DNA from: Tricharina praecox
Lineage: Eukaryota
Direction of reading: 5' to 3'
DNA: 64,000 nt
Assembly (NCBI RefSeq): GCF_024521635.1
Contig: NW_026250415.1
Coordinates: 558,001 to 622,000 of the forward strand
Shown: positions 14,430 through 45,619 of the stretch, piece by piece
Layout: every line of letters starts with the position of its first letter
Numbering within the stretch: position 1 is the first letter of the stretch
Translations under genes and position numbers: made by a program
Notes under the pieces: model-generated
What the model was told of the DNA's origin: nothing
Database searches by the model: none
Seen by the model: only the letters and a program-made list of their open reading frames with translations

Positions 14430-14725
14430 TGGCCATGATGTGAGACAGCTCTACGGCTAGTGAGTACCCCCGGAGTCCGATGCTAATGTTTTCGGAGTTC
14501 GATGGTCCATGGATTGGGCACGATGTGAGGCACCCGAAGGCCGCTGGCAAAACCTCCGGAGTTCGATGGTTCGATATCTGGCAGCCTACAGCAAATGATG
14601 ATACCCAGAGGCCGCTGCCAATATCTTCGGAGTTCAGGGGTTCATCGATTGGGCACGATGTGGGGCATCCCACGGCTGATGAATCATGATTACACCCCGA
14701 AGCCGCTGGCAACATCTCCGGAGCA
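14430..14725. repeat. Degenerate tandem repeats upstream of the P450
   Basis: Recurrent blocks GATTGGGCACGATGTG (x2), GCCGCTG(G/C)CAA (x3), CGGAGTTC (x3). Confidence 0.65.
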
Positions 14726-14850
14726 AACCCCATCCGGTGGTATCTATCTCCACTTATTCACAAGTACTTAAGCAAAGTACCCGGAGTCGTCGGAGTCTAT
14801 TTCACCGCATATCGTTTCCCATCGCCCCGCCTCGCCACACAGACCCGGAC

Positions 14851-16457
14851 ATGGATTTCGACTCGACTCATCTGCATGAGACGCTCCCGCGCTTGCTGAA
14901 AGCCTACTGGCCTCCCGTGCTCGTCGGACTCTTGCTCCTACACTTTCTCGCCAACAAGTTCCGCTCCGGACTGGTTTCGATCCCTGGCCCTTCCCTCGCG
15001 GCCTACACGAACTTCTGGCGGTTCAGAGATACGTGGCGGGGGACCGCGCACAAGAGCTACCGCGAGCTCCATGATCACTACGGACCGCTAGTCCGCATCG
15101 GGCCGAACATAGTGTCCGTATCGGACCCAGAGGCTATCCCGATCATATACAACATTAAGACGGACTTCCACAAGGCGCGTGCCACATCAGATGGAGTGGA
15201 GGATGGAGAGTGCATTATTGACTGATGGTGGAGCGATTATAGACGGCGTCGGCAGAGGTGCAGAAGTTCATCTACAAGAAGAAGCGCGTCGCGAACCTGT
15301 TCTCGCACATCGATCCCGCCGTGCACAGGAGCAAGAAGCGGCTGTTCGGTAACGCTTACAGCCTCTCCTCCATCCTCGAGGCTGAGCCCGGCCTCATCTC
15401 GGTCACCACGCTGTTCATGAAATCTCTCCGCGAGCGCTCCTCGAAGCCCATCGACCTCGGCGAGTGGCTCGAGTACTACACATACGACAGCATCGGCGAG
15501 ATCGCATTGGCGCGGCGACTCGGGTTCCTGCGGAACGGCGGGGACATCGACGGGATGATCCCGCTGGGAGCGATCCTATCGAACTATGCATCCGTCGTCA
15601 GCCAGAAGCCGATACTGGACTGGTTCGGGCTAGCGAACCCGCTGTTCCCGTACCTGCTGCCCTCGATCGAGACGAAGAACGGGGTTCTCAACCTAACGAT
15701 CAAGACGATGGAGGAGCTGGGGTTCTCCGGGCCGCCAGAGAACCTGAAGTCCTGCACGGGCGGCGACTTCCTCTCGCACATGGCGCGGGCGCGGGCCGCC
15801 GACCCGGAGCGCTACTCGTCGGACGACATCCTGATCCAGACGTCGGCGACGGTGTTCGCAGCGACAGACACGACGGCGATCACGCTGCGGGCGATCATCT
15901 ACTACCTTTTACGCAACCCTCTTGTGCTATCACGGTTCACCGCCGAGCTCGACGCGGCGGAGCCGCTCCTCTCGCCCGTCATCACGTACCGCGAGTCGAT
16001 CGACACCCTGCCGTACCTGCAAGCGGTGGTGAAGGAGGCGATGCGGCTGCACCCCGCGATCGGCCTGCCGCTCGAGCGCTACGTCCCCGCGGGCGGCGCG
16101 ACCATCGCGGGGAAGTTCCTGCCCGCGGGAACTACCGTCGGCATGAGCGCCTGGGTCGTCCACCGCAACCCGGACATCTTCACAGAGCCGGACGCGTTCG
16201 TCCCCGAGCGCTGGATCGGGTCACCCCCTGATCAGCTCAAGCGCATGGAGAAGTCCATGTTCCAGTTCGGCGCGGGCGCCCGCTCCTGCGTCGGGAAATA
16301 TGTCGCGCAGATACAGACGAGTACCCTCATACCGCAGCTGTTTAGGGAGTTTGATGTCCAGCTGGAAGATAAGGACAAGGAGTGGGAGGTCACGGCTAGG
16401 TGGTTTGTCCAGCAGGTCGGGTTGGTCGTTAATTTGGTGCCTAGACGTAGTACGTAG
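14851..16457 (+). CDS. Cytochrome P450 monooxygenase (pisatin-demethylase-like)
   Basis: N-terminal TM anchor, IPGP hinge, YGPLVRIGPN, I-helix AATDTT, EAMR (ExxR), PERW, heme motif FGAGARSCVG; single intron about 15175-15242. Confidence 0.93.
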
Positions 16458-17336
16458 TCCGCGCGGGGAGGATGGTGGTTGAATATTTTGTCTCGTCGTG
16501 TCCCGCGTGAAGGCGTATGACGTACCTAGTTTTTTTTGCTTTTGCTTTTGTTTGATCGTTGATTGCTTGCGACTTATCTATACCATGGCAATATACACAC
16601 TGCGTTTCCATGTCCACTGTGCAACCCGACTTTCTTCAAGCGGCCCATCGTGACTTTCGCTTCCCAAAGACACATGCCGAGGAAACGAAAGCTAGGAAAG
16701 AAAAGCCCGTTCCTCACTCTGGCGTGCTCCGTGCTCATCTCGTAGTGCCTCGAGGCCAGTGCTTGAGGGGTGGCTATGCCGGGATCGGGAGCGGTTTCCG
16801 ACAAGGTTTCCGTCTGTGCCGGTACTTCTCGTTTGCGACTCCTGTGCCAGCCCTTCGTGATCACCGCGCTTGAGGTAACGAGTGACGGGGCGCGGTAGCG
16901 GTCCGATTCCGTATCGCTCTAGGTACATCGTACACATCGGACGATGGGTTCGTCCGCCGCCGCCGCCACAACCATCGGCTATCGCGCTCCAGAGTGGCGT
17001 CTCTGTATGCCGGACACCATCCGATCTCGCGGGTGAAGCCGGGTTCTGCGAAGTGAATCATCCCGATACATACCGGTATACGGTATCACACATGGCGTAG
17101 GTACATACTTGGCAGTAGCCCGACGTCCCGTCGCTGTGATGCGATGTAAGAAACCGAGTGATCGCGTGTGGACGGGAAACATCCTCATCCTGCGGAACTT
17201 AGAAGCAGACTTCCCTGAAGTGGCCACTGTCCAGACCCCACAACCCTTGTGCGAGCGCCACCGAAACAGCGCGGACGGACTCGAGCATCTGATCCGCCTC
17301 GCCGTTAGCGGGGTAGCACTGTAGCACTGTAGCAGA

Positions 17337-17420
17337 CCATCCAGCCAGCCATCCAGCCAGCCATCCAGCCAGCCATCCAGCCAGCCATCCAGCCAGCCAT
17401 CCAGCCAGCCATCCAGCAAG
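17337..17420. repeat. 12-bp tandem repeat (CCATCCAGCCAG), about 6-7 copies
   Basis: Directly visible; generates the spurious LDGW/LAGW ORFs. Confidence 0.95.
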
Positions 17421-18660
17421 CCACTCTACCAGCGGGGCAGAGGAACACGTTCCCAACTCCAAACTTCCACCCGCCCAGTTTTTTTTTTAATTTTGCGCCT
17501 CCGCCACCCCGCTATGTACTTTGTATGGTACTGTCGCGAGAGCACAGTTTACACTATGGGACGGTACTCTACTATATTCTAGTTACACTCTATCGGAGGA
17601 TTCTCGTCTACGTCGATAAACGATATCGGCGGCATGCATATATAGAGTAATATATAGAGTACCTACCTGCATGCATGCGCGGTGATGTGCGCCCTGCATG
17701 TGGGTTTGGTCAGTGGGAATTTACATATGTAGAGCAGAGGAAAGAGAGAGTGAGTGGAGTGGAGTAGAATAGTAGAGTGGGTATATAAAGTAGATTGATA
17801 GATTGGTAGATAGAGCGTACATACCGGTTTGCGGATATACTACTGGGTAGTAGATTGTCCACTCTAATCTATGTACTGTACACACACATGGCACCCCTCC
17901 GCCGCTATGATTCGCTATGATTCATTCGCCATCCGCTGCGAGTGTATAGTAAAGGCAGGAAGGGAAGAGCCATATCGATACCGACAGCGAACATGTATGG
18001 ATGACTGGCCCCTCCGCCGCCCCTGCCCCTGCCCCCCCTTCGCTCCCTCGCCCCCTATTCCTTCCACGCCCACGCGAGATAGTGACATTATGGGAGGGGA
18101 GGAGGGGGCGGAAAGGCAGAAATGAAAGCACTCTACTATATATGAAAGCAGCCGAGGATCGAGAGATGAACCAATCGTGTGGTCTGCTGGGAGGCCCATC
18201 CAGCCCAGATTGCTATTGTTTCTCTATAAAAAAAACAGGAATTACATGGGCGTGCTGCCGTGCAGACTGTGCAGGTTAACGTTTTTCGTTTCGTTTTGGA
18301 GGGGAGAGAGGGGGGGTTATTTCGGCGGCGGAAATTTTGTTTTGTTTTTGTTTCGAAACGGACTGCAGCGAGGGGGGTGGTGGGGAGGGAGTCGCCGTAA
18401 TAAATCGATATCGACTGCCCGGGCTGGAGTCGAGTACATAGGAGCAGGCACGAGTGACTGGCCTTGAGCATGAGTAGGAGCAGCAGCACAAGCAGGAGCA
18501 TGAGCATGAGCGATATAAGAGCGCAGTGCCTCACTGCCTCTGCGGAAGCCGCGTTGATTGCTGCCGCTACTACTACCACTGCTGGCGGGGGCGAGAAGGG
18601 CCGAATGAGTGGCCGTGTCGCGCTACTAGTACTCTAGTCTTTGTGCCTTTGGGCCTGCAA

Positions 18661-27258: not shown

Positions 27259-28964
27259 CTACACCAACCCCAACCCCAGGAGCCTATTCCCGACCTCCAG
27301 AAAGAAATAATCCGCATAGACGAGTCCATGATCCGCCCACCTCCTGGGGGCAAACTCATGATTATTAATCGTAGCATTCAATAATATCGTATCTCCGCCA
27401 CTGCCCAAGTCCACGGCGTCGCTCCCATCATCACGGAACCTCGCCGGCGGTGCGAGCGACATCTTGAGCGTAGCGTCTAGGATCCGCAGCGCGTGCGAGA
27501 GGAACCTCACTTCTGGCGTCGCCTCGTAGATACATAGGAACCCACACACCGCGATCATCGCCGCGGACGTGTCACGGTAAGTGGGACGTGGAGCGTCGAA
27601 ATCCCTAAGGGGCAGGCGTCAGTGCGTGGACGGGAAGGTGGGGAGGGAGGGGGAACTAACCAGTGCGGAACTCCGTCTCCGTCGTCGAGTCTGGAGACAA
27701 AGTATTCGCCGAGATTTATCGCGGCGTCGAGAAACGCTTGCTTGCGGGTCCAGGCGTAGCACTGCGCGAAGCCGAGGATGCCCCAAGCCTGGCCACTGTT
27801 GCGGGTCAGTAACGGTACTAACGGAGGCCGTCTCGGCATGCGGGGGCCGCGAGGAACTTACCGGCTCCAGGTGCTGTCGTCCGCGTAGCCCTGGTTCGTG
27901 AGCTTCTCCTTGACCGCCCCCGTCTCCTGGTCGAAGTTGACGACGTGCACGGTCGACCACTGCGGATGTCGGATGTGGTGCTTCAGTGAGTTCTCGGCGT
28001 GTGTGGTTGCGATGCTGGATAGGCGGAGGTCGCCGGTCTGCGCGGATACCCAGTAGAGGAGGTTTAGATCTGGAGCGATTGCCCATCAGCATCAGATACG
28101 GGATCAAAGGTGCGATGTACGCATGTAAGTACTCAGCATATTGTCGATAATGACCAAGAAATCCGCCTTAGGATCCTCAAAAGCGTAGCGTTTGGTACAG
28201 CACGTGTCCCAGCTACGTATCAACCCAACCCTTGGCTCAAACCTGCTGGCAAGGCTATTCGCCGCGGTAACTAGCGTATCCAGCGAGCGCCTATCCCCGG
28301 TGAGCTCATAATCCTTCTGGAACGGCAGCAATATCATGAATCCCAAGTCATGAGTATCTGTTCTGTGAGCCTGAACATGTAGATTTTCCGACCACCAGCG
28401 ACACGCATAGCGCAGCTTCTCGACATGCAACTTCTCTATGGGAAAATGTCCCGGATACACCTTCGCCCGCTCCAAAAGCAGGTACAGGCTCCCGGGAAAA
28501 AACCCCGACGTCCAGAAGTCCGCTGCGGTGTAGCTGTACGAGCTCGATCCCGGTGGCGTGTACTCCGGCATTTCTGTCGGTGGCGATGCCCGGTCCAGTG
28601 CCCCCCGTGCGACCCCCCAGATCTTCGCTACGGCGCTCGGGGAGAATAGCGCGCTGGTTGCGGATATCCGCTGCGAACGCGCGAGCCGCTCAGAGTCTGT
28701 CTGCTCGGGCTGAGTTGTTTCGCCGCTGGCGAAGAGCAGAGGCGGCGAGGCCGTCGGCGTGGGCATCTGTGCGGCTTCGGATCCCTGGGCATCCCAATCA
28801 GCTAACAGTACCAAGTACCAACGGCATCCAAGCACCCAGATTCGCAATACCATCTCCGCCCCCGCCCGCTCATCCCTCCTCAACCGATGCACTCCGTTCG
28901 CCTTCCGCTTCTTGCTGATGGGGGAGTCGTCACTTGTGCGGAGCATTTCGGCGTGGTTCGTCAT
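27259..28964 (-). CDS. Unsaturated glucuronyl hydrolase, glycoside hydrolase family 88, no signal peptide
   Basis: FWTSGFFPGSLY, THDLGF, IRSWD, VIIDNMLNL, WDFDAP...RDTSAA, YADYFFLE; introns about 28785-28850 (66 nt, in frame), 28069-28132, 27606-27661. Confidence 0.92.
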
Positions 28965-29117
28965 TCGCCAGCGTTAAGGATAGGATACGGTTGGGACTTC
29001 TAGTTGATTATTTGAAATCCCTTCGTTTTCCCAGATTATGTACTTATTATAACTGCTACATACGAGAACGGATGAACGGTACGATGAGCTTTACGGTTTC
29101 CTGATGATGACGGAGCC

Positions 29118-29142
29118 CGGAGGAATCGCCGGAGCGCCTCCG
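29118..29142. promoter_or_regulatory. Candidate Zn2Cys6 binding element upstream of GH88
   Basis: CGGAGGAATCGCCGGAGCGCCTCCG; 22/25 identical to the reverse complement of 34802-34826. Confidence 0.7.
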
Positions 29143-29496
29143 CTCAAGACGGAAAATTAGGCCCCGCTCGGTTGGATGATTACCGGAGTATGTAGAGGCA
29201 TCATCGTACTGCGAATAGAGTAGGCCGGTTCCCCATGGGGATCATTCTTTTGTGGCAAATAATAGGCAACAGGTCAATGTGGTAACTGTCTGTCGAGCCA
29301 AAGTGTGCAGCTTATATAATCACGTATGGAGAAAACGTACGGCAACAGTTCACAGGAAAACCCCACTGAGCTCAGCCCGACAGGGGAGATATGGATGTGT
29401 GGACTGCGGTATGTATGATGGCCAATATGATAGTATTTCACACCTCTCCCCAGCAGAATGTACTGCTTCCTAGTCTAAATGAAAACCTTTAAAACA

Positions 29497-32189
29497 TCAA
29501 AGAGGTCCTCCATTATACATCAACACCCGATCCAATTCCAAGAACTGCGGGTCGGCAAAAAGATTCGATATCTGTGCCATCTGCTCCGCACTCAACCCTG
29601 CCTCCATTTGCACATGTTGCTGGTGCATGCTCCCGGGACTATTGCTGCTCTGCATGAAATTCTCATAGAATGCCGTGTCCGTTTGGAACGCGAGGGGCAT
29701 CGGCGGCGAGGCGAGGGAGAGAGGTTCTGAGGCTGGTATATACTGGTTGTCGAGCTCGAGATAGCCGGAACACCCGTTCATGGTGCCGGTGGTGGTGGTG
29801 TGGTTGGTGTCTGAAGAGTACGCGGGTTGCCGTAGGTCCACGCCGTTGTGTTTTGCTGATGCCTGCGTTTGCGCATTCAACAGGTTGCGTGCAAAGCGGC
29901 TTGCGAGGTTGTCGGATCCGTTTTCGGTGACGTAGACACCTTGCCAGCGGTTTGAAAGCTCAAGGAGAGACTTGACTAGGAGATGGAATTCGGGGAGGAG
30001 CTCGAGGCGATAGTATGTTGAATGAGCTTATATAGGAGGTCAGCGGGTACATATCGGTTGAGGAGTGAAGGATGGGGTACCTAGTAGCGATCTTCCGGCC
30101 ACAAACAGACAGAACGCAAAGTGTGGGTTTGTGATGCCGGCATTGTGGATGAGGTACTGCTGGGTGATGGTTGAAATCTCCGTGGCAGCCGACACACACG
30201 TGTCAACAGAGCTTGCCTGCGGCAGTTTCATGGCGCTGGCTTGCCACTGAGCGGTGGGAAATGCGATGCCTTGGTGCAGAAGGATAACCGAAGTGTTATG
30301 TGTGATGTGAGCCAGTGTGAGATTCGGATCCATTCTGGGTTCCGCATCGCGAACAGTCGCCTCCCGCCATTGCGGGGGCAGTGAGAGTTTCCACTTGACG
30401 AGCGCAAAGTCAAGCTCTTTAAAGCGCATCAGCCAGTGTTGTACATCTTCGATGTTTTGCGGATTGACGGCTTGTTGGAGAAAGAACCGAGTGACTTGGC
30501 TCTATTCTTGTGAGCTCACACGCATATGTAGGGTCCATCGATACGCACCAATGACTCGGTTGCTTCTATGCAATACGCAAATCCTCCTAGTGATGCAACC
30601 TCTTCCGGACTCTGTGCCGTACTATTTGTAGGGGCGTCGAATCTCTGAAGTCCTCCCGGCTGGCTGCTATCTCCAATTCCGAAGTATCGGGTCTTCACTG
30701 GCTTTTCGGCTTCCCAGATAGCGCCTTCACAAGGTAGCCGTCGGCGCGCGTCTGCACTAGTTAGGCCTGGATTCCACCCTGTCGACACACTACAGAAACG
30801 ATCGAGCAGGAAGACATTCCAAAATACACGCCGCCGTTCTTCGGACTCTACCCAGTTCCTCGGTTTTCCAAGGAAGGACAGGCGGTGTATCATGCGATGG
30901 CTTGCGCCATTGGCCGTGCCGTACGACTGGCCTTGCTGCTCTGTAAAATCATCTTCAAAGCTCAGCTGGAGGTGCTCGACTTGTCGAGACATGCAGTCGA
31001 CTATCGCCCAAGATTTCGGGCCCCTTCCGGATCCAATCTTTGGATCATAGTCAGTAAGTAGGCCACTATAAGGGAGTAATTCGCATACCGTGTCAAAAGC
31101 TACGATGATCAAAGCTTGTAAGTTTTCAACCGAGAAATTCTCCATGCATTTCAAGATGACATTCTGCCGGCAGATCTTCGACAGCCGTTCTCGCGTCTCC
31201 TGCTGTTCCAGTCGGGGGTCTGAAGAAAACCTAACCGTGACTACAGTGATGGCACACAGGATGGTAGAAAGCTGGTCTCGTTCCGCGGGGCTGTCGAGTT
31301 TTCGAAGCAAGCATTGCTGGTGTATGACTGGTATCCAGGGGTGTATCGTATTGAAGTATATCGCAACAAGTTGCTGCATCAGATCGAAAGGAGGAAGATC
31401 CGGGTCGTCGAAGAAATTGGTTATCGATCGCTTTCTGGACCGTATGGTGGGATTGTCCCGAACATCGCCTGCTTCGCTAGAGCCGTCCATCCTATTCGGC
31501 GTAGACGGACTACCAGTATTCCCGGAGTGCTGTCTACGAATCTTTTGAGGTACAGGGTTTGCATTATCGATGTCAGCCGAATTTGAGTATGCGTCCATTA
31601 GGTCTCTTTTCAAGCAAGCGACTTCAGCTGTGATTCTCTGCTGTGCCGTGCCGGTAGGTTGTGGCGTGATGACCGCCATGTTCAACGGCGTTAACTGCGT
31701 AGTAGAAGCAAGTAGCTGTCTCATAAGAAGGCTCTGGCCAATAAACATCTTCTCCAGAGCATCTTCAACCGGCGGTCAGTCGGCGTCCAGGCCGGATTCG
31801 CTTCTTCGCGGACTGGAAAAAAAAACAAGCGCACCTAGCCGTTGAGACAACGACTCGACGACTCCTGCCTTCACCCCCGGCTTGGTCTTCGACTCGTCAT
31901 ACTGACACTCAACCCCTAGCACCATTGTTTAGCGGAACTGGGCAGCTACAAACGCCCCATTCTCGAAAGTTCGCACCGAACCGGACGCAGAGAGTGCATG
32001 GCTGTTCTCGGGTGCACTTTGCCTTGCGCTTGCGGCACGACTGGCAGCTAGTTGGCAGCAAGTCAGCGAGGCACAACGCGGCATCCAGGATGTGTTGGTG
32101 TACGCTGGCCCTTCGTCTTCCTGCGGCTCCGAGCCAGTCTCAAGCTCATTTTCCTCGCTCTTGCGTTTTCCCCTCGAACTGCGGGACAT
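29497..32189 (-). CDS. Zn(II)2Cys6 transcription factor with fungal-specific TF middle domain
   Basis: After removing introns 32048-32103 and 31916-31976: ACQSCRKRKAKCTREQPCTLCVRFGVEC (CX2CX6CX5CX2CX6C); YFNTIHPWIPVIH; EERRRVFWNVFLLDRF. Further introns; 3' exons approximate. Confidence 0.9.
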
Positions 32190-32874
32190 GGCTGGTTGGT
32201 TTCGTTTTGGTTGGGTTGGGTTGGAACTTCTTCGTCGCGCGGGAGACTGTGATCGCAGAAGTTTGGACTTTCCTAGTGACAACGTGTATGTACGGCGATG
32301 CAATATGCAGATTGTGGGGGAGATATCCTGGGGTAAAGTGACGCGGCAACTCGGCTGGATGCCGTCGCTTAATTTAGCCGGGATGACTTCATCCAAAAAG
32401 GTTGCCACACGACGATTCTTAGCAAAAGCCAAAAGTAAGAAGTCAGGTATAAGGTATGTGCCTAGAAGGTTGTTCATATCGCTGCACAGCTCTCATTGCG
32501 GATAGCCCTCGAAGTAAAACAGCCAGAAACAGTTCGGAATTAAGGCATTTACGTTGATTCACGCTCGTCGTTTCTATTCAGTGGTTGACAACCAACCCAA
32601 ATCACTAGACAGCATTGAATGGGTAGTTCGAGCTGCTAATTACTCTACTAGGTATATATGCTAACTCACAACCCGCTCATAGCACAGGCGATCACTCTAG
32701 TCTGTGAATGTCCTCTCTTTACTGAATTTCAATATTCTTTGTTTCCCGCTAACTTAACCCGCCAAATTCGTCACCGAAATAAAGCAATTGCAGATCCTCC
32801 AACAAGTTTTCCTCCCACATAGCCCCCATCATAATACCACCCCACCCACCCCAGTCCGTCCGTTCCATACATCC

Positions 32875-34599
32875 TTAAAAAGCATAACGAAAGTCGGGAT
32901 TCTCCTGATCCGTCAAGTCTTCAAACGCATGTGCATGTTCAATCTTCTCCTGCGCCACATCCGTCACGCCCGCATCGCTCCTCTTCGCCGCATTCCGTCT
33001 GGTAAGGATAAACCTCGAGATACAGACCATCGAGATGAAGAATATGTACAGAATCAGGTGGGCGATGAAGCCATGCCTGTAGCGCGGCTTATCGCTGGCC
33101 TGGAAGATCTGGGGGGCGGTCATGTTGCCCGCGGCCCAGGCGCTGTGGACACTGAAATCAGCATCGCATGCGAGTAAAAGGGCGGGGAAAGAACTTACAC
33201 AAACGTGATGGTCAGAGTGACACTCTTCTTCGTCTGCCCGGCGATGTTCCGCGAGATCAGCGAGAAGATCATGTTTCCCTGGGCCAGGAAGAACTGCGTG
33301 CAGTAGAACGCGATCAGTAGCCCGACCTTGTTACTAGCATTCGGCGTGATCTGCATTATCACGACTGTTCCCACGATCGCCGGAACCGTCCACAGCAACA
33401 TGACGGCGCAGGTTTGTTGGTATTTCGTGGCCAGAGTCGCACTGCCGATCATGATCGCGATGGTGATGGCTCCCTGCGCGATGTTCAGCAGCTGTGTTTG
33501 AAGATACGTGAACCCGAACGCCTTGATGATCAGGTTCGAGAACACCCCGAGGCCGCCGATGATGAGCGTACTGCTCGTCTGCAGGAGCACGTAGCACCAC
33601 ACCATCGGATCGGTCAGTGCTTCGACGATCTGGTACTTCTTGTATTTCTTATTCTGGATACCGGTTTCGTTTGCGCGGACCCGCTCGATGAGGAGCTTCT
33701 TGGTGTCTTCGTCGAAGCATTTAGCCTTCATGGGGGAGTCGGGAAGGTAGTAGCCAATGAAGCAAGCCCAGACGCAGGTGAGAAGACCCAAAACGAGGAA
33801 GAGCAGTTGCCACGATCTAATGGGCCCGTCGTTGAAGTGGGAGACTCCGAACGCGATCAGACCTCCCACCATGAGCTGCACGCCAAACATGCAGTACCAT
33901 AAGGACGTCAGGATCTGCTGTTCCTGGCGCGTGTACCACATCGCCGTGAGGATGATGAATGCCGGCTGGACGCAGGACTCGAAGAACCCCAGAAGGAACC
34001 GTACCGCCATCAATGAACCGAAGTTTTGAGCGGCCGCGGAACATGCTACGACTGCGCCCCAGCAGAAAACACTTCATCCCCGAGAATGTTAGCATCATGG
34101 ACAAGAGGGGGGTGCTACCGGTGACAATGACTTACTTGACGGACAGATACTTTGCAATGGGCAGCTTCTGTAGCAGGAAATTGGTCGGATATTCACCCAC
34201 CAGGACGCCCATGTACAGGATCGTTCCCAGCCAGGAAAACTGTTGTCCGACAAGATTCGCATCCTCCTGGATGTTCATGATGGAGGAAAAGCCCAGGGTG
34301 CCTTTGTCGAGAGACTGGCAGAAATAGGTCTACATATCCAATATTAGGCTGGGGGGTCTGAGAATGCGCGCCAGAGAAAGACGGTGTCTTACACCCAACA
34401 TGATCACCAGCACCCTCTTGTTCACTTTCCAGAACAGCTGTTTGTTGAGCTCTTCGCCAATGATGATGTGCTCGACGCCGGCTGTGTAGCGCGCGACATC
34501 CCTGTCGGCCTCGGTATCGACGACGCGATCAATCGTATCATCGGCCGCCTTTTCGCTCGTGCTGTGAACACGGTTCACATCCTCAGTTGGTGGAGGCAT
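32875..34599 (-). CDS. MFS transporter, anion:cation symporter (DAL5/allantoate-permease-like) family
   Basis: QSLDKGTLG, RFLLGFFES, MWYTRQEQ, WQLLFLVLG, LPDSPMKAK, NIAGQTKKS, APQIF, C-terminal FEDLTDQENPDFRY; multi-exon. Confidence 0.92.
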
Positions 34600-34801
34600 G
34601 GCTGACTGTTTGTTCAAGGGTGCGGGGGGCGGGGGTGTGGGGAGGGAATCAGGGGACTGGAGAGCTGCGGATTAGAGCCGAGTTGGCCCAACAGCAGGAT
34701 AAGCATTTAGTATCTATATAAATCCGGGGACGGTTCAAATGGTACGGAAGATCATATTCCAGCCTTCAATTGCAGCCCTACGTGTGGGGTAATGGGCTGT
34801 T

Positions 34802-34826
34802 CGGAGACGCTCCGACGATTGCTCCG
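34802..34826. promoter_or_regulatory. Candidate Zn2Cys6 binding element upstream of the MFS transporter
   Basis: Minus strand reads CGGAGCAATCGTCGGAGCGTCTCCG, matching 29118-29142. Confidence 0.7.
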
Positions 34827-35759
34827 CTGGCCGCTCTACAGCATATCACTCGCCCCGGCACAACAATCGACGTCAGATGGATCGTAAAACGGACCCCATG
34901 AATTTACAGCTCACGTACATTAATGCTGGCAAGGATTCTCTGCTTGTGTAGGGTTCGCTTCTGAAGCGCACAGGCGGGGTGTTTTGTCATGTGTTTCTGA
35001 ACAGACATGCACTCGGGGGGCACCCCTCATGACTGTGGTCCAATCATCACAATACCGACCGGTCAAAAGATTGGATGAACATAAGCTCTCCAATATTCCA
35101 GCGCGGGGGCCAAATTCGCTTCAGCTCCCGACAACAGCCCGCCTCCGGCCCTAACGAAATCGACATGCACATGTAGAGTGCCAGTACCAACCAAAGGCTC
35201 CTGGCAACTGTCAGTTAATGCCGCCGTATGAACCAATCACTACCCAATACCCAAAAATTCGAATCACACTCATACATCTCTTATTCGCCCAAGAGTCAAA
35301 TTTTTCAATAGTCTACTTCCACCGCTACTCGAGCGCCGCACAACTTTATCCTCCTGAAACAACTTTGCGACACAACACCCGACCAAGCAGCAGCGATGTC
35401 CGAAGTACCCACCGGCTGCGAGGTAGCCTCCAAGCCACTCAGAGCACTTGAGAAGCCCCGCGCCCACCTCCAAAGTAAAGAGCTCAAGACTTTCTTACAC
35501 ATCCACAACTACAGAATCTTGCCCCCATAGAAATCGTTAGGTACATACTTTATACGTTGCGTGGAATCCAAAGAATCACAATATTACCGGAGGATCAACC
35601 GACAAAGCAGCGGGACATCCGGTGAAGTTGAAGGACGGCTTCATTACCAGAAATTATTATATCTGCTGGAGGAAAGGGCATCCGCTGCTGGCCACGATGA
35701 CGGGACAATGATGACTCCGCTCGATGCCGACTCATTCAAACACTTGTGCAGCATGCCAT

Positions 35760-35995
35760 TGAAGTCAAGTGAGTATGACGGATGGAGCCATCAAGCCTTG
35801 AATCTCGAGACTCAGCCGTTGAGGATGTGGTAGGGTCTGGTAAAATAAGCGGGCTCACTACTAGTAAGTATCCTCGATTATCTGTCATGGCCTGGGAAAT
35901 ACTTGGAATTGACGCCATGTCTGCTGAGACTCCCGAGCAGGTCTTCAATCCCTAGCACCAGGATGACTAGATGTCATTGACCGCCGATAGAGTAT
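35760..35995 (+). mobile_element. hAT-superfamily transposase relic (C-terminal dimerisation domain)
   Basis: 35866-35946 translates KYPRLSVMAWEILGIDAMSAETPEQVF, matching the hAT pattern (R/K)YPxLSxMAxxILxIPAMSAExERVFS; preceded by SEYD...QPLRMW* (TGG TAG at the usual WW) and followed by DRR*; stops and frameshifts present. Confidence 0.72.
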
Positions 35996-38900
35996 GTGTA
36001 GTGAGGTTTGTGGGTGTCTCGGGCATTAGGAAGTACGAGTTGACACTTGACAGCTCGAAGGCGGCAGCTGAGAGCCACGCCATAACTTCATTTCAAGTTT
36101 CAACCTGAGAATCGCCCAAATTCTCTAACCCACTGCTGAGTTTTGAATTTTCCGTCGGATTACTAGTGTAGAGCCGTGTGAACCAAGCGGCCCATCCAGC
36201 TCAAGGGGGGACGTGATGCAGGCCATCACTCCACAGCCCAGCTGCGGGTTAACTAAGGGGCTATTGCCAGCACGGGTACATCCGGGGGGACCCAGTCCCA
36301 CCGGGAGAAGCCGAGACGGTGGCGGCAGTGTTGTTGGAACTTGGGTCCATGATTGTCAGCGGGAGGCTGACTTTGCAGACTGGGGATGCGGGAACGGGCG
36401 GAAGTTGGAGCAGCCTCCATCGCGGTGATTTCGACTGAAACGCACAGACAATGGATCATGGATGATGAACGCGATAGCTTGCCTTACACCCGTAGTTATT
36501 CTTTTTGGTCCGGAAAAAAAAGAATATGTATTGTACTACCGGAAGTAGAATGAGTGATTGACTTATAGATAGGCTGGGGGAGGTTTTGTAGAGCGCCGTG
36601 CACAGGAACTAAAATTATCACCACAACAACAGACATGGGTCCTTGCAAGAAGAGTAAAGCACCCACGCTGATTAACTATCGTGTAAACCGAGTCCTTGCC
36701 ATCGACATTGATTACTGAGGTTCATAGATCAGCGTGTACTACCTACGGGATGTAAACAAACATGGTGGTTGGTAGTAGAATGTCTCAGTGCTCCAACTTC
36801 CGGTTCCCTTTCCCTCGCAAAATGGAACCAGAAAACAAATAGCAAAGCACGGAGAAACTCTAGAGGATCCGGCAAGAGTTGGATTTCACTGAATCTTCTG
36901 AAGTCGTCAAGAGCCGAATAGTGAATGTATTGGACGCGAAAGATTGCGCGAGTAACTCGGTTTTGTGCCGGAAGAAACTCACAGAAGTACGGCTGTGATA
37001 CAGCGCATTGCGAGCAAAATCACGAGGTCCGAAGTAGGATAGCAGAATATAAACTGTAACTTCTGAAGACATCTTGCTTGTGGGATCAGTCAAGCTACCA
37101 GTTAATGTGGTTGTAGCTCTTGAAAAAAAGAGCCGAACCTCCCACTTTCCGTGCGCGGACAAAACCCTCATATACCCCCTGATGGTTCTAGAGTAGTTCT
37201 AGTGCACGAAATCTGTAGAACCTCCCTTGTGTTTCGGGCCGTTGGGAATGTTTTCCTGATTCCTCGGAGCAAGGAACGGGCAATAGGCATTACAAAAAGG
37301 CGCTCACGGAGGTCTTCCGTCTCACGTCCTTAGACCTAAACCCTCAGAAGCTGGCAAAAAAGAATGATGGAGTGAAGGATCTCCAACCTGCTCAGAAGAG
37401 CCCATGTAGGGGGGAAAGCCGAATGGAAATCGAATGATGTCGCGGTTCCAGACCCCTCGTCCTCAATTCAGAAGGTTGGGAAATCCCACTCACAGACTCG
37501 GTTCAGAAGCTGGCCACCGGGGGACCACCTGCCGGCCGGGAAGGGGGTGAAATCCTCGAGAAGAAAGAAGCGAGACCCAACAGGAAGCGTCGTGAGGTTC
37601 GCCACCCGGCTATGTGGCATCAATGATCGAGGACGTCGCTTCCAGCCAACAGATATTGCTGCGGCTGCCCGCACGGTCCTTACAAACTCCAGATATGTAT
37701 GGAACCCACGGATGCGGGGAGCTCAGTAGAGCCTTGTCTTACTTTTTCTGGTCTGCAGATGTGTCTGTAGGATCTTTTCCCCCTGCCATACGCGTATGCA
37801 TGCTACGTAATTAGCCATGGTCCACCCGGAGCTACTCGCTATCAAGACACTCCAGCCTGTGTAAGGAGTTCGAGGAGCGGTGGTCTGCCCGTGTTGTGGT
37901 GTAGACGGGAAGTGGGTCGGCCCAGCTGCAGACATCCGCCTAGGGCTGAATCGCAGCTACGGAAGAGGTGGATTGGGCCGATGAGACGAGTTCTCTGTGC
38001 CATATCAGCGCTCGTCTTCTGAATGCTGCGTGCATTTGGGGAATTGAGGTCACACGGCAGTCATGCACTGGGCGACTGTAAACAACTTCAGCTCCGCTGT
38101 TCGGCTGATCCGAGCCCTACAGAAACGCGTCTGGAAACATGCTGAGTGCGGACCTTGCTGCGGTGCATGCTTGGGAGAAACAACGACGGCAGCGAAGAAA
38201 GAGGTGGAGAGAGTATCCTGAGTCCTCGCCTATCAGGCTCGATTTGGCAGGGCTTAGTGCTGAGCCTGCAGTTTGTGCGACATCGACGACGGATGTCTCG
38301 GCTACAATTCCTCGGGCCAGTCCTCTTTCTTCTCCATCGCCACCCGCGCCCCACCTCGTGCCGCGATCTGCACGCTATGTATTGGCTGGTCACTTCTCCG
38401 CAGAACAGATCAACCGGATGGATGTAGGACGAAGCTGCACCTCGAGGTCGAAGCCAGCTGAATGGCTCAACTAGCTCAAGCCACATGGCATGGGGCTTAG
38501 CGCAATATATGCAGGTACATTCGTCGTCCCCCCGTCTATGTACTCCACATTGCGAGCAGACTCTCACGGGTATGTAGGGGAATTCCAAGTAGTTACTGCT
38601 CTACGGACCCGCCGAGGAAGCTGCCTGCCAGTTGAGCGGCAAAACCTCGAAGCGATCAAGATTCCCCGAAGGAGGCAACATTCCAAAACAACTGGCCCGG
38701 AATGTCGACGGTCTGGAATTCTAAATTCCCAGACAGTGCGGACATGCGGTAACAATCGCGCCGGAGAGTATCCGCGTTCTCGCATCGAAAATTCAGCCAG
38801 GGGATTGGCGTTTCGTTTCCAGCTGAGCTGTCACTGGCTTTCGTATGCACAGTGGAGATGGAGGCCACACGGAGAATATGAGACGATGTCTCACGCGTCC

Positions 38901-39168: not shown

Positions 39169-42100
39169 ATGCTTTTCGATTCGGTCTTCAAACCCAACGG
39201 GACCAATGGAGGTACATTTCTTCTAGCCATTCATGGTCTTCGTGTCATGGTGGCGGCACATTTCTAATAGTGCTTGAGAATAGTCGCCAACGGCACCAAA
39301 GGCCATACGAAGGACGACGTATCTTCGAACGGTGACAGTAGCAGCAGTGGCACTGCGACCCCCATTCATACGGATAGCCTCACCATCCGTCAACCCCTAC
39401 CTGAAATGATCAAGCCAACTATGACGCGAGTATACGAGTCGACCCAGGAGACGTATATTCTCAAAGACACCACGACGTTGATCACCGTCCGGTGCAAGAA
39501 GGAGTTTCCCTCGAAGGTAGACGACATCTTGACGGGAGTGCCCACCTGCCATGCATTCCTGGATTTCATCGCCACCGAGAGATTGAGGAGCATGCCACAC
39601 AAGGGAAGCAAGTGGGATAAGGTCTTGAAGTGGGCCGAGGGCTACAGCCGAAAGGTCGATGCGTACTCGCATGCTATCAGTGGCTTCGCCCCTCATAGCT
39701 GGGAATCGGCAAGGCTTGTTTGGGGATGCTGTCGGTGGCTTTTGCGGGTAAGACAACTCGTGCACGTCTGGCGAATGGGCTTTCTGACGCGTCTTTAGAT
39801 GGGCCCGGAATACGTCGAGATGCTTGAAAAGATCTTCGGTGTCATGTGCCAGATCGGACAGACCCTCGACTTCTTCCTGAAGAATAAGCGCCTTTTCTGT
39901 GCCTCCGTGGAGATTCAGGACATCCTTGCTCTGGCATACTCCGATCTCATCCGATTCACGGTCGAGACCACCATTCATTACAAGAAGACCACGAGCATCT
40001 GTCTCGCAGACTTCGATATCCTGTTCGGCCGTGTTGTTGATTCCTTCTTCCACCGCAAGGAGTGTTTCACCAGCGAATCGTGGGCCTGCAGTTTAAGAGA
40101 AGAATCCCTTACTACCACATCCACCACCACCATTCACATCATCCGGCAATGGCTCTCGGTCCAGGATAGAACCTTAGATATCTGTCTTTCCAACCGCATG
40201 GGGACGCGTACCGCCAGATACGAATTTACCTGCGAGTGGTTTGAGAGCCACATGCGGGAGTTCCAACGTGATAGGACCGATGTGCTATGGGTGTGTGGAA
40301 AGTCCGGCTCGGGTATGTAATTCCCCTCCTCTGTGGCGCTACCTTCCGTCTAACTGAGCCTAGGAAAGAGTGTACTCTCTGGTTGGATCCTGGAGAGACT
40401 GCGGAGAACCCAAGGTACCCGCAATGGCTATGACGTTATCTCCTATGCCGTTGGTGAGTGCTACTAGATATACCCTACGCTCAACGGATGACACTTACGC
40501 AAGACACAGATGCCAATCTTAAGAGCGAAAGGTCGTCGTTCAGCATCGTGAGGTCGCTGCTCCTGCAACTCCTTGAGAGGAACGTTGGAGACTTGTCGGT
40601 CTACAAGATCCTTTCGGCACTCTATGAGCGTGCGGAGCGCAGTGGAGTAACCGACAACCTTGAAGCCGCTCTGTGGAAGGCTTTCGACTCCGCTCTGGGA
40701 CGAAGCGAGTGCAAGTTGATGATTGTCATTGACGGTCTCGATCATCTGGATGGCGGCGAGCCTGTGATCTGGGAGCTTTGCGAAAGACTGCGCTGCACAG
40801 CATCTAAGTACAGCTACGTCAAGTGCTTGCTCCTCTCCCGGCCGTTGAGCAAACCATGCCCGTCCACCATCAAGGAGTTCGTCATCGAGGCAACCTGCAA
40901 CACTGCCGACATCAAGCGGTTTGTCGACATAACCATCAATTCTTGCATCGAGTTCAAGACCCTCAAGGTTGAAGAACGCCGCAAAGTTGTCGAGACGATC
41001 ACGCAAACTTCGTCCGGCACGTTCGTATGGGCCGAATATTCCCTCCAACTGCTTCGGATGGAGAAAACGGTGGCCAATATGATGAAGTGCCTCGACACCC
41101 TCTCGACCATGAAGACCCTGGATGATATTCTTCACAAGCTCATTCTCAAGCTCGACCTCAAACAGTCGGATACCAAACTTTTGATATGCCTACTTCTCGC
41201 TGCCGAGAGGCCGCTCACCGTTCAGGAGCTCGGGTGCCTGTTCGAGATCGACGTCACCAACTGCAGCCGCTCCGCCCGCCTTACCAAGATCGAGGATGAT
41301 ATCCGTATCGCCTGTGGCTCTCTAGTCACCATCCGCGATGGGCTCGTGTGCTTTTCGCACGTCTCCGTCAAGGACTACCTCATGGAGCTTTGTCTCTCGG
41401 ACGATGACTTCCCATTGAGTATCGAGGAAGCTCACACGGAACTCACCATCCGGAGTTTGGGGTACATGAAGATTTCTCTGAAGGGCATGGACCACGAGCC
41501 CACGCTTGAATGCGGTTGGGATGGCTCCGAAGAGGTCCTGCAGAAACATCAGTTCCTCGAATACGCCGCGCGCCACTACGTCATCCACTTCAAGCAATCC
41601 ACCATGTACAACTCCAAAGGAAGCCACAGCTGCTCGGCAACTTTCAAAGCCTGCTTTCCTAACTCCTCTTTCCTCGCGTTCATCGAAGGCAGCTGGTGGG
41701 AGACGCAAACCTGTGCCAGTGAAGCTGCAGAACTGCACCATCTTGCCCTGCAGCTCCGGAAGATCGCGCTGGGCGAGAAGTGCGTCTCGGTTGTCCAGTG
41801 CTACATCAACCTGGCCAGAACACAACAGAACCTTTCGAGTTATGTTTTTGCCAGCGAGAGTTACTACGAGACGTGGAAGATCGTTTGCAAGGTCTTGGGT
41901 GAGACCCATGCGATTACTCGCGCCTGTGCCAAAGCTGTTATCACTTGCACGGAGTTGGTCACTACCACCACTGCGACGGTCACTCGCACCGAGACTATCA
42001 TCAAGCGCAAGGAGACCATATACAAGTATATGTACACCCACTGCGAGACCAGCGAGGAGAAGATCACCTATGCCAAGGTGCTCGCAGAGCTTTACATCCA

Positions 42101-45100
42101 GCTCAAGAGGACGGAAGAGGCTCTCACGATCTACCACGAGATACGGAAGGTGTGCATCGAAGTCTATGGCGAGCTTCACGAGGAGACGACCACCATGACC
42201 AGATGTCTCACTAAAGTCCTCGAAGTTCTCGAGAAGCATGAGGAGTGCATCACCATCACCCGCAAGCTTTTGGAGACCTGCGAGAAGACCACCGAGGTGT
42301 GGGAGGAAAAGCGCATCACCACCACCATCACCATGGTCGAAGTCTACGAGAAGCAGAAGGAGATCAAGAAGGCTGAAGAGCTTTTGATCAGTCTTTGCCG
42401 AAGCATCACCGAGGTCTGCAGAACCAGCCACGAGGAACATTACCATGAGGCAAAAATCAAGATCACGCTCGAGTATGTCCGGTTCTTGGAGCGCTGCTCC
42501 AGAGACAAGGAGGCCGAGAAGATCTTGATCGAGTTGTGGAACGAGTTCAAAGGCCAGCTGAACGAGAATGACTGCAACCATGGCCATGGCTTGCTCATCC
42601 AGATCCGGATCATCGGCGACGAGTTGAAGAAGTGGAAGATTGTGGCGGTCGCCGAGTCCGTGTTCTCTTCTCTGTGGGGATTCTACAAGAGAACGAGCAG
42701 AACCACAAGTAAGGAGGCCACCTCTATCGCGATCAAGCTTTCCGAGGTTCTCAACATCAAGCAAGAAACCCATAGCGAGGAGACCATCTTGAAAGAAATT
42801 TTCAAGACCACCTCCACCAAGACCACGGTTGACATCACCGTCATTAAGACGTGTACGAAACTCAGCGCTTTCTACGAGCGAGAGGAGCGGTGGGCGGAGG
42901 CCATTAGTGTCTGCACCAAGTCCCTGGTCAAGATCTGGTCATCCCTCATCAGTTTCATCGAGAGCAGGTCGGGCATCTGCGCTCTGCCGGCGGAGTATTT
43001 CGAGGAGGCGATCATGATTGCACGGCGCCTCGCCATCTGCTATTTCAAAGCTGGCCACATTCACAATGCTGAGAGCGTCTACATCTACATCTTCAGCGCC
43101 TGCAGGTCTTCTCTGCAGGTCCACGACGAGTACATCCTTTCTACGGCGGAGTTTCTGGTCACCTTTTACGAGTCGATAGGCAAGATTGATCAGGCCCTCA
43201 AGATGTACCAAGAGCTGTATGAGGAGTACCAGGAAGTCCTTGGGTGCTCCCACACGCTCACGGTCAAGATCACCTACAAGCTTGCGCACTTCTGCACGCA
43301 GCATCAGCCCCGAAAGGCCGAGCAATATTACTTGGTCATTGTCACTTCCCTCGGTCACCGTACAGAGATTCTCGAGACGACATCCATCGAAGCCGTTCTC
43401 GTTCTCTGCCGGATCTACGAGACCGACAAGAAGTACAGCGATGCGCTCAAGTACTACCGCAAGCTCTGGCTGACCTTCTGCCGCCGCGGAGAAGACTGCG
43501 GGATGAGCACCGAGACCGTGCTGAACATCTACCAGAAATACGTATACATTCTGGAGCGGGAGTCCCAGTTCTCGATCATCTACGATGTCACCATCCAGTT
43601 CCGCGAGGCGTGCATCAAGCACTACGGAAAGCACCACCACATCAGCGTTCTCGCCACGATCGAGCTTGCGCGTGTCCTCGAGCGCGAGGAGTCGAAGCAC
43701 CAGGAGGCCATCGTCATCTACGAGGAGGTCCGCAAGATCATCTCCGAACACAGTGAGCTTAGGATCATCATGCAGGCCACCATAGTTGAGGTCCGCAAGC
43801 GGCTTGCACAGCTCTACGCTGTCCACACTTCGTCCAGCTCCAAGGCGGAGGTGATCTACATTGAGTCCTGGGAGGAGTATAAGTGCAAGCATGGGTGCTC
43901 ACACGAGGAGAGTCTATCGCGCCTCTACGAACTGATCATGTTCTTCAAGAAGCAGAGCACCAAGGAGTGCACGCATACGGCCACTATCACCCTCCAAACC
44001 ACCATCATTGAGATCATCACTAAGGAGAAGGACACGCAGCGGTTGTTTTTCGCCGCTGGATCGATCGCAAAACTCTACCTGGCATTGGGCCTCAAAGAAC
44101 TCGCGTTCGAGCTCCTCCAGGAACTCAGCCTGCAGCTCAACTCGGTCGAGGTCAGGACTTCGAAGAAGTTCGGGTTCTCGCTCCGCACTGGACACACGCT
44201 GGATCGGAGGTCTTTCCTCTTCGTCGTTGCATTCGAGGAAACGCTGAGGGGCAACTGCTCGGCCAATCTCTACGCCGAACTGATGACCGACCTCGTCACC
44301 GAGACGACACTGTACGAGAGCTGGATGCGGACGCTGAAATACGGCGGATCATTCGAGTCCTCGCTCAGCGTTGGAGCTCGGCTGCGGCTTTTCCTTGTCA
44401 GCAAGCACCGAGAGGAAGAATGCAACCGGATCACCGAGGAGCTTTGGGAGCTTTTCCAGGGCGGAGTTGGCAAGCAGGCGAAGAAGTCCGGCATCATCTG
44501 GGAGCTGTTCCTCATCTGCGTCAGGGAGATGGGAGTCGAAGAGCACGACCTTACGGTCCTCGAGACCGCTGCCACCACAGTGGTCACCCACTACGAGAAG
44601 GGCGACTTCGCGGGATCCCACGAGCTCGCCACTTGGACTTACCAGTACGTCAAGGTTCATGGCGGCTTCATCGAGCAGCGGAACCTCGCCGTTGGCTTCA
44701 AGATCTCCCTGTGTATGGCTGGGAAGGGCTCGCCGCCGTGGAAACGCTGCCAGGATGAAAAGCTGAAGGTGATGATGATGGAGCTTTCGCGCACCGTGTT
44801 GGCCGAGGTCCTCAAGGCCAGCGAGTCGGAGCATATGTCGTTCAGCAAGATGCGCATTGAGGAGGTAAACCTGATCGTTGGACTCCTCGGCGAGCAGCAG
44901 AACTTCAAAGATCTCGAGGTAACTTCACCCCTCCCCTTTCCCCTCTGTCCCGCGCCCTCCACCGCAAAACATACTAACAATCCTGATAGCGTATTCTCCG
45001 CGACCTCTGGGAAGCACGCCAACACCGCGCCTCATGGAGCGCAGACGTAATCGTGTCGATCGGCCACCGACTATGCGAAGTCCTCTTCGCCTCGGGCAAG

Positions 45101-45619
45101 CGTTCCGAAGCGATCGATCTCTGCAACGACATCCGGTACAACGTGAAGCGAGTCTGGGGGGCCGTTGACGCCAGCACAGTTCTCAGCTACAACCTTCTGT
45201 CAGGGATGTACACTGCATCGGGCTCGTACGACAAGGCGATGGAGCTGCACGTGGAGCTGTTACGGGAGACGCTCGCGCCCGAGAACGAAGACGAGCTTGT
45301 CGACGTCGCCTCCGGCGTCATTTTACAGCAGATGAAGCTGCTGAAGCGCAGCTATCAGAGGCTGGGTAGATGGATTGATAGTCCCGAGGAGTACAGGAAG
45401 CTCTGGGACGGCTTCGAGGAGCTGTTCGATCATACCGATGACCTGTGGAAGGGAATCGACCATATCAAGACGTGGTCGCCGAAGCCCACCGGCGTAAAGG
45501 TCCATGAGGGCATTGGAATGTGGAAGGCGCCCGGGAATTGGTGCTTCCTTCCGAACGAGGATGAGAAGAAGAGTAGGGCCAGACATGCGTGTCATCTGAG
45601 GAGTGAGGATGATGATTAG
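39169..45619 (+). CDS. NACHT (STAND) NTPase with long degenerate TPR-like C-terminus; fungal NLR-like, about 2049 aa
   Basis: Exons 39169-39211, 39284-39747, 39799-40312, 40364-40453, 40510-44918, 44990-45619 (6150 nt, in frame). TCEWF, Walker A GKSGSGKS, Walker B IVIDGLD, LLLSRP, GTFVWA, AERPLTVQEL, FSHVSVKDYL, FLEYAARHY. Confidence 0.9.

Follow-up and report, generated by a model that had tools for sequence, protein, structure and literature searches.

Why would a fungus keep a hydrolase for unsaturated uronic acids, a carrier for organic anions and a transcription factor side by side? The question is raised by three adjacent genes of Tricharina praecox, which occupy 27259-34599 (all on the minus strand) of a 64,000-nucleotide stretch covering positions 558,001-622,000 of its contig (NW_026250415.1, C10 in our numbering, of a fungal assembly totalling 38.4 Mb). 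We refer to this whole stretch as the window. The genes encode a glycoside hydrolase of family GH88, a Zn2Cys6 regulator and a major facilitator superfamily (MFS) carrier, and an earlier note made from the letters alone had read them as an uptake-and-hydrolysis module resembling a minimal bacterial polysaccharide-utilisation locus (PUL). Overall, we judge it probable, at roughly 60%, that the trio is a conserved, self-regulated scavenging module for lyase-made oligosaccharides capped by an unsaturated uronic acid.

A linked trio in fungal genomes

GT-AG splicing turned each of the three genes into an open frame with zero internal stops, and splice joints in RNA-like contigs coincided with 11 of 12 predicted introns (regulator 6/6, carrier 3/3, GH88 2/3), bearing out the earlier description of three co-oriented neighbours. 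These contigs come from two runs, X1 and X2, of two studies; their RNA nature is presumed, none being on record as RNA, and contig depths are not a basis for ranking genes. No contig of a soil metatranscriptome (X3) was placed on the locus. The GH88 gene (27259-28964) was modelled from its spliced frame, joints and homology as 484 amino acids, with exons at 28964-28851, 28784-28133, 28069-27862, 27795-27661 and 27604-27259. An additional 5′ intron of 66 bases (28785-28850) has a joint in run X2 only, at depth 2.6, and a TATAA-like element read from the sequence (29047-29051, minus strand) lies ~83 bases upstream of the ATG at 28964. Because of this joint and element, the start was moved upstream to 28964 or to the equally possible 28946; the shortest alternative model has 440 amino acids from the ATG at 28766. 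The regulator gene spans 29497-32189 (783 amino acids, six introns) and the carrier gene 32875-34599 (513 amino acids; exons 34599-34393, 34329-34136, 34071-33199 and 33142-32875), one intron acceptor of the latter having been corrected to 33143 from the joints. A plus-strand GT..AG joint at 28769-28815, seen at low depth in run X1, points to spliced antisense transcription across the 5′ end of GH88.

Linkage of the orthologues elsewhere, the synteny test proposed in the earlier note, was retained in ascomycete classes, in Lipomyces and in a smut. GH88, carrier and regulator genes are consecutive in Pestalotiopsis fici (PFICI_04100/01/02) and in a member of the Dothideomycetes (NU459 g4835/36/37), and have near-consecutive accessions in Fusarium oxysporum Fo47 (EWZ40845/46/48). 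Linked pairs occur in Aspergillus fumigatus (XP_749875/76), A. flavus (QMW26918/19), A. spinulosporus of the A. nidulans group (KAL4819351/53), A. niger (An01g01340/An01g01350), Lipomyces doorenjongii (KAK9489374/75) and the smut Melanopsichium (SNX85117/11). In A. niger, the gene preceding GH88 (NRRL3_01738) measures 2400 bases, a size that fits the regulator. Further pairs are adjacent or a few locus tags apart in Coniosporium, Verruconis, Stachybotrys, Paraphaeosphaeria, two Sporothrix, Diaporthe, Neonectria, Penicillium, Monosporascus, Trichoderma and Fusarium. For a systematic count, the best 120 matches each of GH88, carrier and regulator were compared, with co-location judged by an equal longest contig, which on multi-megabase contigs means the same chromosome only. 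By this measure, 45 of the best 120 GH88 matches sit on a contig equal in length to that of a listed carrier or regulator match (11 with both partners, 16 with the carrier only, 18 with the regulator only; 33 on contigs <1 Mb), and 14 further contigs pair carrier and regulator among the matches listed. The module is real, widely conserved and apparently undescribed as a catabolic unit; the literature searched, incomplete for subscription journals, contained no account of this cluster, nor of any fungal GH88 that had been characterised or located in the nucleus.

This conservation also bears on whether the genes are chance neighbours, with the carrier a nitrogen-scavenging allantoate or dipeptide permease. 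Close relatives of the carrier are indeed named 'allantoate permease' or '2-ketogluconate transporter', as had been anticipated for automatic annotation, and the former name is what speaks for chance. Linkage retained across classes despite shuffled gene order and orientation largely refutes it, and we regard this alternative as highly improbable. Fusion proteins of the A. fumigatus MFS carrier were dismissed as mis-joined neighbouring genes.

A fungal-looking metagenome locus (L017, 234-9823) combines a distant GH88 with a homologous regulator (43% over part), an MFS gene and a DUF2264 gene, the last of which we take to correspond to the GH154 beta-glucuronidases. Since L017 is a sister cluster, the GH88-regulator link may predate the split of the fungal GH88 clades. 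In T. praecox itself, the DUF2264 gene (contig C21) and two GH105-like genes do not adjoin cluster parts. One gene lies between GH88 and regulator in F. oxysporum (FOZG_09472/FOXG_02672), and similar gaps in Neonectria and Scytalidium may hold more cluster members. The smut GH88s P0010, P0017 and P0232 nest in a Dothideomycete-rich clade through weakly supported nodes; this nesting, together with the nearby carrier in Melanopsichium, raises the possibility that the cluster was transferred.

Enzyme, carrier and regulator

Similarity, motifs and orthologue fold place the window enzyme in GH88 and predict hydrolytic activity. The exon search returned 2735 relatives of at least 400 amino acids, of which the best 120 were used (fungal where named); the 440-residue model shares 57-62% identity with its five top-scoring fungal homologues. 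A profile of 62 fungal orthologues matched only 8 PDB sequences, all of them GH88 or unsaturated glucuronyl hydrolases (UGLs), at E values of 5e-66 to 4e-57 (5e-66 to 3wiw, 5e-59 to 1vd5). A predicted structure of the Pestalotiopsis orthologue (mean local confidence, pLDDT, 89; first 30 residues disordered) gave UGL structures as its ten best Foldseek matches, at E 1e-13 or better, with GH105 at 3e-7 or worse. Judged on this modelled orthologue, the enzyme is predicted to be an (alpha/alpha)6 barrel nearer UGL than GH105. Pfam family PF07470 (threshold 26.6 bits) left the window exons unmatched and scored full-length orthologues at 18-22 bits or not at all; it picks the two GH105-like genes of this genome, not the window GH88.

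Both aspartate motifs that the earlier note had recognised are kept. The HDLGF motif (28338-28352, minus strand) carries an Asp aligned to the residue mutated in the Bacillus UGL D88N structure, and the IID motif (28143-28151, minus strand) carries the second catalytic Asp, presumably Asp149 in UGL numbering; both residues are invariant in two alignments (A1 and A3). The lack of a signal peptide, likewise stated there, agrees with a crude Kyte-Doolittle test, in which the N-terminus was not hydrophobic in either model, nor in any of 91 main-clade fungal homologues. These features support an enzyme that works inside the cell and keeps both of its catalytic Asp. Like the bacterial UGLs (1vd5, 2zzr, 3wiw), the fungal protein has the fold, both catalytic Asp and the surrounding motifs, but it differs in its 20-26% identity by structural alignment, in a disordered basic N-terminal tail and in a locus without adjoining lyase or phosphotransferase-system/ABC genes. 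No bacterial sister group stood out for the fungal GH88s in the homologue search or the tree.

The best of nine NCBIfam matches to the carrier was TIGR00893 (2A0114, D-galactonate transporter, of the anion:cation symporter (ACS) family) at E 1.7e-39, alongside an MFS_1 match at E 1e-21. This closest profile supports a carrier of the ACS or DAL5 type (TC 2.A.1.14), the type behind the 'allantoate permease' names. Twelve transmembrane helices are expected of this type; a crude hydropathy scan put six segments above threshold, and the large exon had no PDB sequence match.

The regulator has a complete six-Cys Zn2Cys6 cluster and a PF04082 domain. A search of the genome with a regulator orthologue returned the window gene first and then a gene at C28:1088905-1090998. 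The two proteins share 31% identity over 340 amino acids of the central domain (hhalign E 3.6e-49) and 44% over the DNA-binding domain plus linker, and behind the zinc cluster their linkers are nearly identical; four other paralogs of this genome scored far lower than the C28 protein. The C28 gene lies ~5 kb from an L-rhamnonate dehydratase gene (E 8e-207 to 3fxg), with SDR and DHDPS-type aldolase genes nearby. RhaR likewise sits in an L-rhamnose catabolic cluster (PMC5674754). Because it adjoins L-rhamnose genes, we equate the C28 gene with RhaR by position only, and comparison of the two T. praecox sequences then makes the window regulator a paralog of the rhamnose-cluster factor, not the RhaR orthologue. 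A 'second class of RhaR' (PMC4245848) was considered for the window regulator and set aside; the species range differs and no match was made. The C28 cluster (1078600-1091000; loci L180 and L181), with its dehydratase, SDR, DHDPS-type aldolase and RhaR-like regulator, was observed in its own right: the aldolase is reportedly missing in the corresponding A. niger cluster, and CGG-N11-CCG sites occur upstream of both dehydratase and aldolase.

RhaR binds CGG-X11-CCG (PMC4245848). Two perfect CGG-N11-CCG sites of this RhaR/Gal4 type stand in tandem, 2 bases apart, at 29150-29166 and 29169-29185, ~100-135 bases upstream of the GH88 TATAA-like element, and are candidate binding sites for the regulator. 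No perfect site was found upstream of the regulator gene, and a pair of one-mismatch sites (34731-34761), just upstream of a TATA-like element of the carrier gene, is at chance level.

Substrate and mechanism of the proposed module

GH88 cleavage yields 4-deoxy-5-keto-uronate. In the mechanism we favour, lyases, whether of the fungus itself or of its neighbours, would release short oligosaccharides that end in a 4,5-unsaturated uronic acid cap; the ACS-type carrier would import such an oligosaccharide, and intracellular GH88 would remove the cap to give a sugar and 4-deoxy-5-keto-uronate. This acid or its next metabolite would activate the RhaR-paralog regulator, which would bind the tandem sites and raise expression of GH88 and probably of the carrier. 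The proposed role of the product as inducer follows from its chemistry: numbered from the carboxyl, 4-deoxy-5-keto-uronate is a 2-keto-3-deoxy acid, the class reported as likely inducer of RhaR and GaaR. As the source we rank the pectin or arabinogalactan side chains of plants first, ahead of glycosaminoglycans.

The yeast MAL locus comprises a permease, a maltase and a Zn2Cys6 activator. Its three parts are exactly those of the trio (import, intracellular hydrolysis and a dedicated activator), although the window has an ACS-type anion carrier and a GH88 in place of a sugar porter and a GH13. The L-rhamnose cluster under RhaR/TRC1 (PMC5674754, PMC4245848) is similar in its clustered catabolic genes and Zn2Cys6 activator, to which the window regulator is paralogous, and in CGG-N11-CCG sites, also present upstream of the window GH88; it differs in that the rhamnose copy is on C28, that the window cargo is a hydrolase plus a carrier, and that, in the expression data for A. 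niger, GH88 does not depend on RhaR. A Bacteroidetes PUL also groups the carrier, the hydrolase and the regulator that serve a single glycan fragment, but no SusC or SusD was found among the scanned open reading frames (ORFs) of the window, nor is there a polymer-cutting enzyme, and the parts are eukaryotic. The architecture is of the ordinary fungal MAL/rhamnose-cluster type and not a PUL. Of the reading proposed in the earlier note, the GH88 with both Asp, the ACS-type carrier and the dedicated regulator stand, while the likeness to a minimal PUL is loose only.

Several observations weigh against the proposed module. Among the matches listed, 75 of the best 120 GH88 matches have no partner, which does not equal absence; in A. 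hancockii, GH88 (002026) and carrier (009146) are unlinked; F. decemcellulare (g925) and L. doorenjongii have unlinked carriers, the latter on a different contig; and two metagenome loci from a distant, fungal-looking GH88 clade (L015 and L016) have no partner. The carrier scores 136 on TIGR00893, against a cut-off of 395 for that bacterial subfamily. Window-wide, CGG-N11-CCG occurs at chance frequency (20 sites versus 22.9 expected), two sites in 501 bases have P ~0.011, uncorrected for three promoters, and the carrier upstream region (34600-35400) has no perfect site and five one-mismatch sites. One GH88 intron (28070-28132) has no splice joint in either RNA-like run. The A. niger orthologue An01g01340 was flat at 11-17.5 across all 2017 microarray columns shown (PMC5701360); these include sugar beet pectin, polygalacturonate, rhamnogalacturonan, galacturonic acid and rhamnose, and conflict with the RNA values for pectin given below. 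Expression values on inducing media for the A. niger transporter and regulator were not found in the supplements searched. The two GH105-like genes of T. praecox could already process pectin lyase products, and its genome gave no match to the lyase models PF15892, PF05426, PF08124, PF07940 or PF14099 in a loose search that also missed the window GH88.

The RNA values for A. niger point to a plant substrate. On sugar beet pectin at 2 h, An01g01340 reached 89, falling to 10 (8.7-fold lower) in the strain lacking AraR and standing at 124, 109 and 206 in strains lacking GaaR, RhaR and both, respectively (PMC5617896). On fructose it was at 0.16-0.22 transcripts per million and unaffected by gaaR overexpression (PMC5847190), and in a rhamnose study its value was 14 in the reference against 30 when RhaR was missing (PMC5674754). 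The cluster's locus tags are absent from the available supplements of PMC9781776. Because induction on sugar beet pectin is AraR-dependent and GaaR/RhaR-independent, a plant-derived substrate is favoured over glycosaminoglycans; an arabinose-shielded pectin or arabinogalactan fragment has, in our estimate, an even chance of being the substrate, followed in our favoured order by products of microbial polysaccharide lyases and then by glycosaminoglycans. The glycosaminoglycans and gellan to which the earlier note had looked are not favoured by these expression data. Near An01g01340, a GH27 gene lies two locus tags away and a GH2 glucuronidase gene eight (PMC6854810), and in Fusarium a lyase that cuts the rhamnose-glucuronic acid linkage of gum arabic leaves unsaturated glucuronic acid (PMC13259613).

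Could the module be real and its substrate not a lyase product? The carrier would then transport a sugar acid monomer or some small glycoside, with fungal GH88 shifted in its specificity. Fungal GH88s are 31-42% identical to the nearest bacterial ones and carry extra conserved loops relative to solved UGLs in the profile alignment; the cluster is present in yeasts and smuts, no lyase adjoins it in the window or in six scanned loci, and fungal GH88 was reported as uncharacterised in 2011 (PMC3160556). We nevertheless consider a shifted specificity unlikely: the enzyme retains the motifs that line the active site in solved UGLs, and in A. niger a pectin preparation induces the orthologue.

That the window holds no lyase, as previously remarked, was upheld among the ORFs scanned with Pfam, which were the longer ORFs and not every exon. 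Elsewhere in the genome, polysaccharide lyase family PL1 has nine matches on five contigs, and PL3 and PL4 also have matches. One GH105-like gene (C94:21210-27060) has a PL3 pectate lyase gene ~4 kb away and a carboxylesterase gene nearby, and the second (C33) adjoins an MFS gene. Neighbourhood scans found no lyase family near GH88 in L017, L092, L099, L108, L116 or L132. The last five are the bacterial loci scanned, out of ~155, with L018 scanned in part, and these bacterial neighbourhoods gave no substrate clue. A secreted GH28-like beta-helix was rejected as the missing polymer-cutting enzyme, having no match in this genome and occurring at 1 of 160 loci. Such a beta-helix adjoins the regulator in A. 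pseudonomiae (N-terminal part of P0352), with a 43% homologue near GH88 in bacterial locus L092, where it is fused to a beta-lactamase-like domain (14043-18533); a beta-lactamase-like gene of Fusarium (P0299) adjoins the regulator as well.

GH88 genes are annotated in many fungal genomes. The proposed module assigns a transporter and a regulator to fungal GH88 in tractable hosts (A. niger An01g01340/An01g01350), and it gives access to three questions: the uptake and use of lyase products by fungi, the cargo of the large 'allantoate permease' clade and the ligand of an orphan RhaR paralog.

N-terminal tails, a stop-containing intron and the flanks

The N-terminal tail of the window GH88 contains KKRK (28902-28913, minus strand), which matches the monopartite classical nuclear localisation signal (NLS). 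This match depends on the upstream start, which itself follows from one low-depth joint and the TATAA-like element. A script applied the classical pattern, K(K/R)x(K/R) or bipartite, to tails of at least 25 amino acids. Among the best 120 GH88 matches (83 such tails, 34 short, 3 without anchor), 35 of 83 tails carried the pattern, versus 4.6 expected from shuffles; in carrier tails it occurred in 0 of 38 (81 without anchor, 1 short). On a FastTree tree, whose 116 rows comprised the window model, the named hits, L017, 18 representatives and 7 presumed bacterial sequences (unnamed hits excluded), the pattern fell largely in one clade of 67 sequences from Eurotio-, Leotio-, Sordario- and Dothideomycetes (local support 0.99), where 35 of 56 tails have it versus 4.1 expected, and a KR dipeptide is found in 41 versus 10.3 expected. 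The remainder of the main clade had 0 of 12, other fungal clades 2 of 16 and windows of the catalytic domain 7 of 482. The tail sequence around the motif is not conserved, and in the Pestalotiopsis model the tail is unstructured (pLDDT ~41-44). As a sequence pattern, the evidence for NLS-like tails in the family is strong; for the window copy it is modest, since the protein falls outside the NLS-rich clade, in a group that includes Lipomyces, Choiromyces and yeasts, and shuffling gives its KKRK a 10% chance.

These tails suggest a further claim, compatible with the scavenging module, in which importin-alpha would carry GH88 into the nucleus to act next to the regulator, either as the local source of the inducer or as a partner that depends on a ligand, in the manner of Gal3/Gal80 or GaaX. 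Besides the enrichment, the unstructured orthologue tail and the window KKRK, it draws on the precedent of GaaX, a clustered partner of GaaR that is both nuclear and cytoplasmic (PMC5847190). The GaaR-GaaX and QutA-QutR systems (PMC5847190) similarly cluster an activator with an enzyme-like protein and respond to a sugar-acid inducer, but the window GH88 retains its catalytic residues and an interaction would be hypothetical. Invariance of both catalytic Asp argues against a dead-enzyme repressor. We hold a nuclear role to be possible but doubtful: the NLS is a pattern match, the 35 motif-bearing tails are not independent because kin share motifs, many yeasts have no tail, and GH88s of Diaporthe and Neonectria adjoin the regulator and have no motif. 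Were it true, this would be an unusual nuclear glycoside hydrolase within nutrient sensing.

The intron at 28070-28132 (minus strand) lies right after the IIDNML motif, contains an in-frame stop and has a position common to other fungi. One RNA-like contig reads through it, a second stops within it, and its donor context is weak; at the equivalent position, the database proteins P0003, P0009 and P0504 are read through. An alternative reading is that this GH88 copy is decaying or held inactive, with most transcripts retaining the stop and giving no enzyme. The intron left unspliced in both runs, the weak donor and the plus-strand spliced joint over the 5′ end fit such decay. We think it very unlikely; the frame and every motif are intact, the same intron is read through in three database proteins, contigs lose rare forms, and the runs probably come from non-inducing growth. 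Regulated retention or an internal start is possible, and the equivalent intron seems mis-spliced in two smut proteins. The boldest combination, in which an NLS-directed, active GH88 would supply a nuclear RhaR paralog with its inducer, in a widespread undescribed lyase-product regulon with an intron-splicing switch, strikes us as improbable, more so than a nuclear role by itself.

The earlier note had named a transposase relic among the bounds of the trio. At 35.1-39.0 kb, no ORF matched a Pfam transposase family, even at E<=5, or had a usable Atlas match, and the region 35300-38000 matched only its own locus in the genome; the relic was accordingly not confirmed. Short, broken, single-copy reading frames with no family found lie at 35399-35830. 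Further along, on the plus strand, 39271-45616 encodes a large protein that has TPR repeats and, at its start, a weak DUF7708 match; the gene is probably of the fungal NACHT-TPR (NLR-like) kind.

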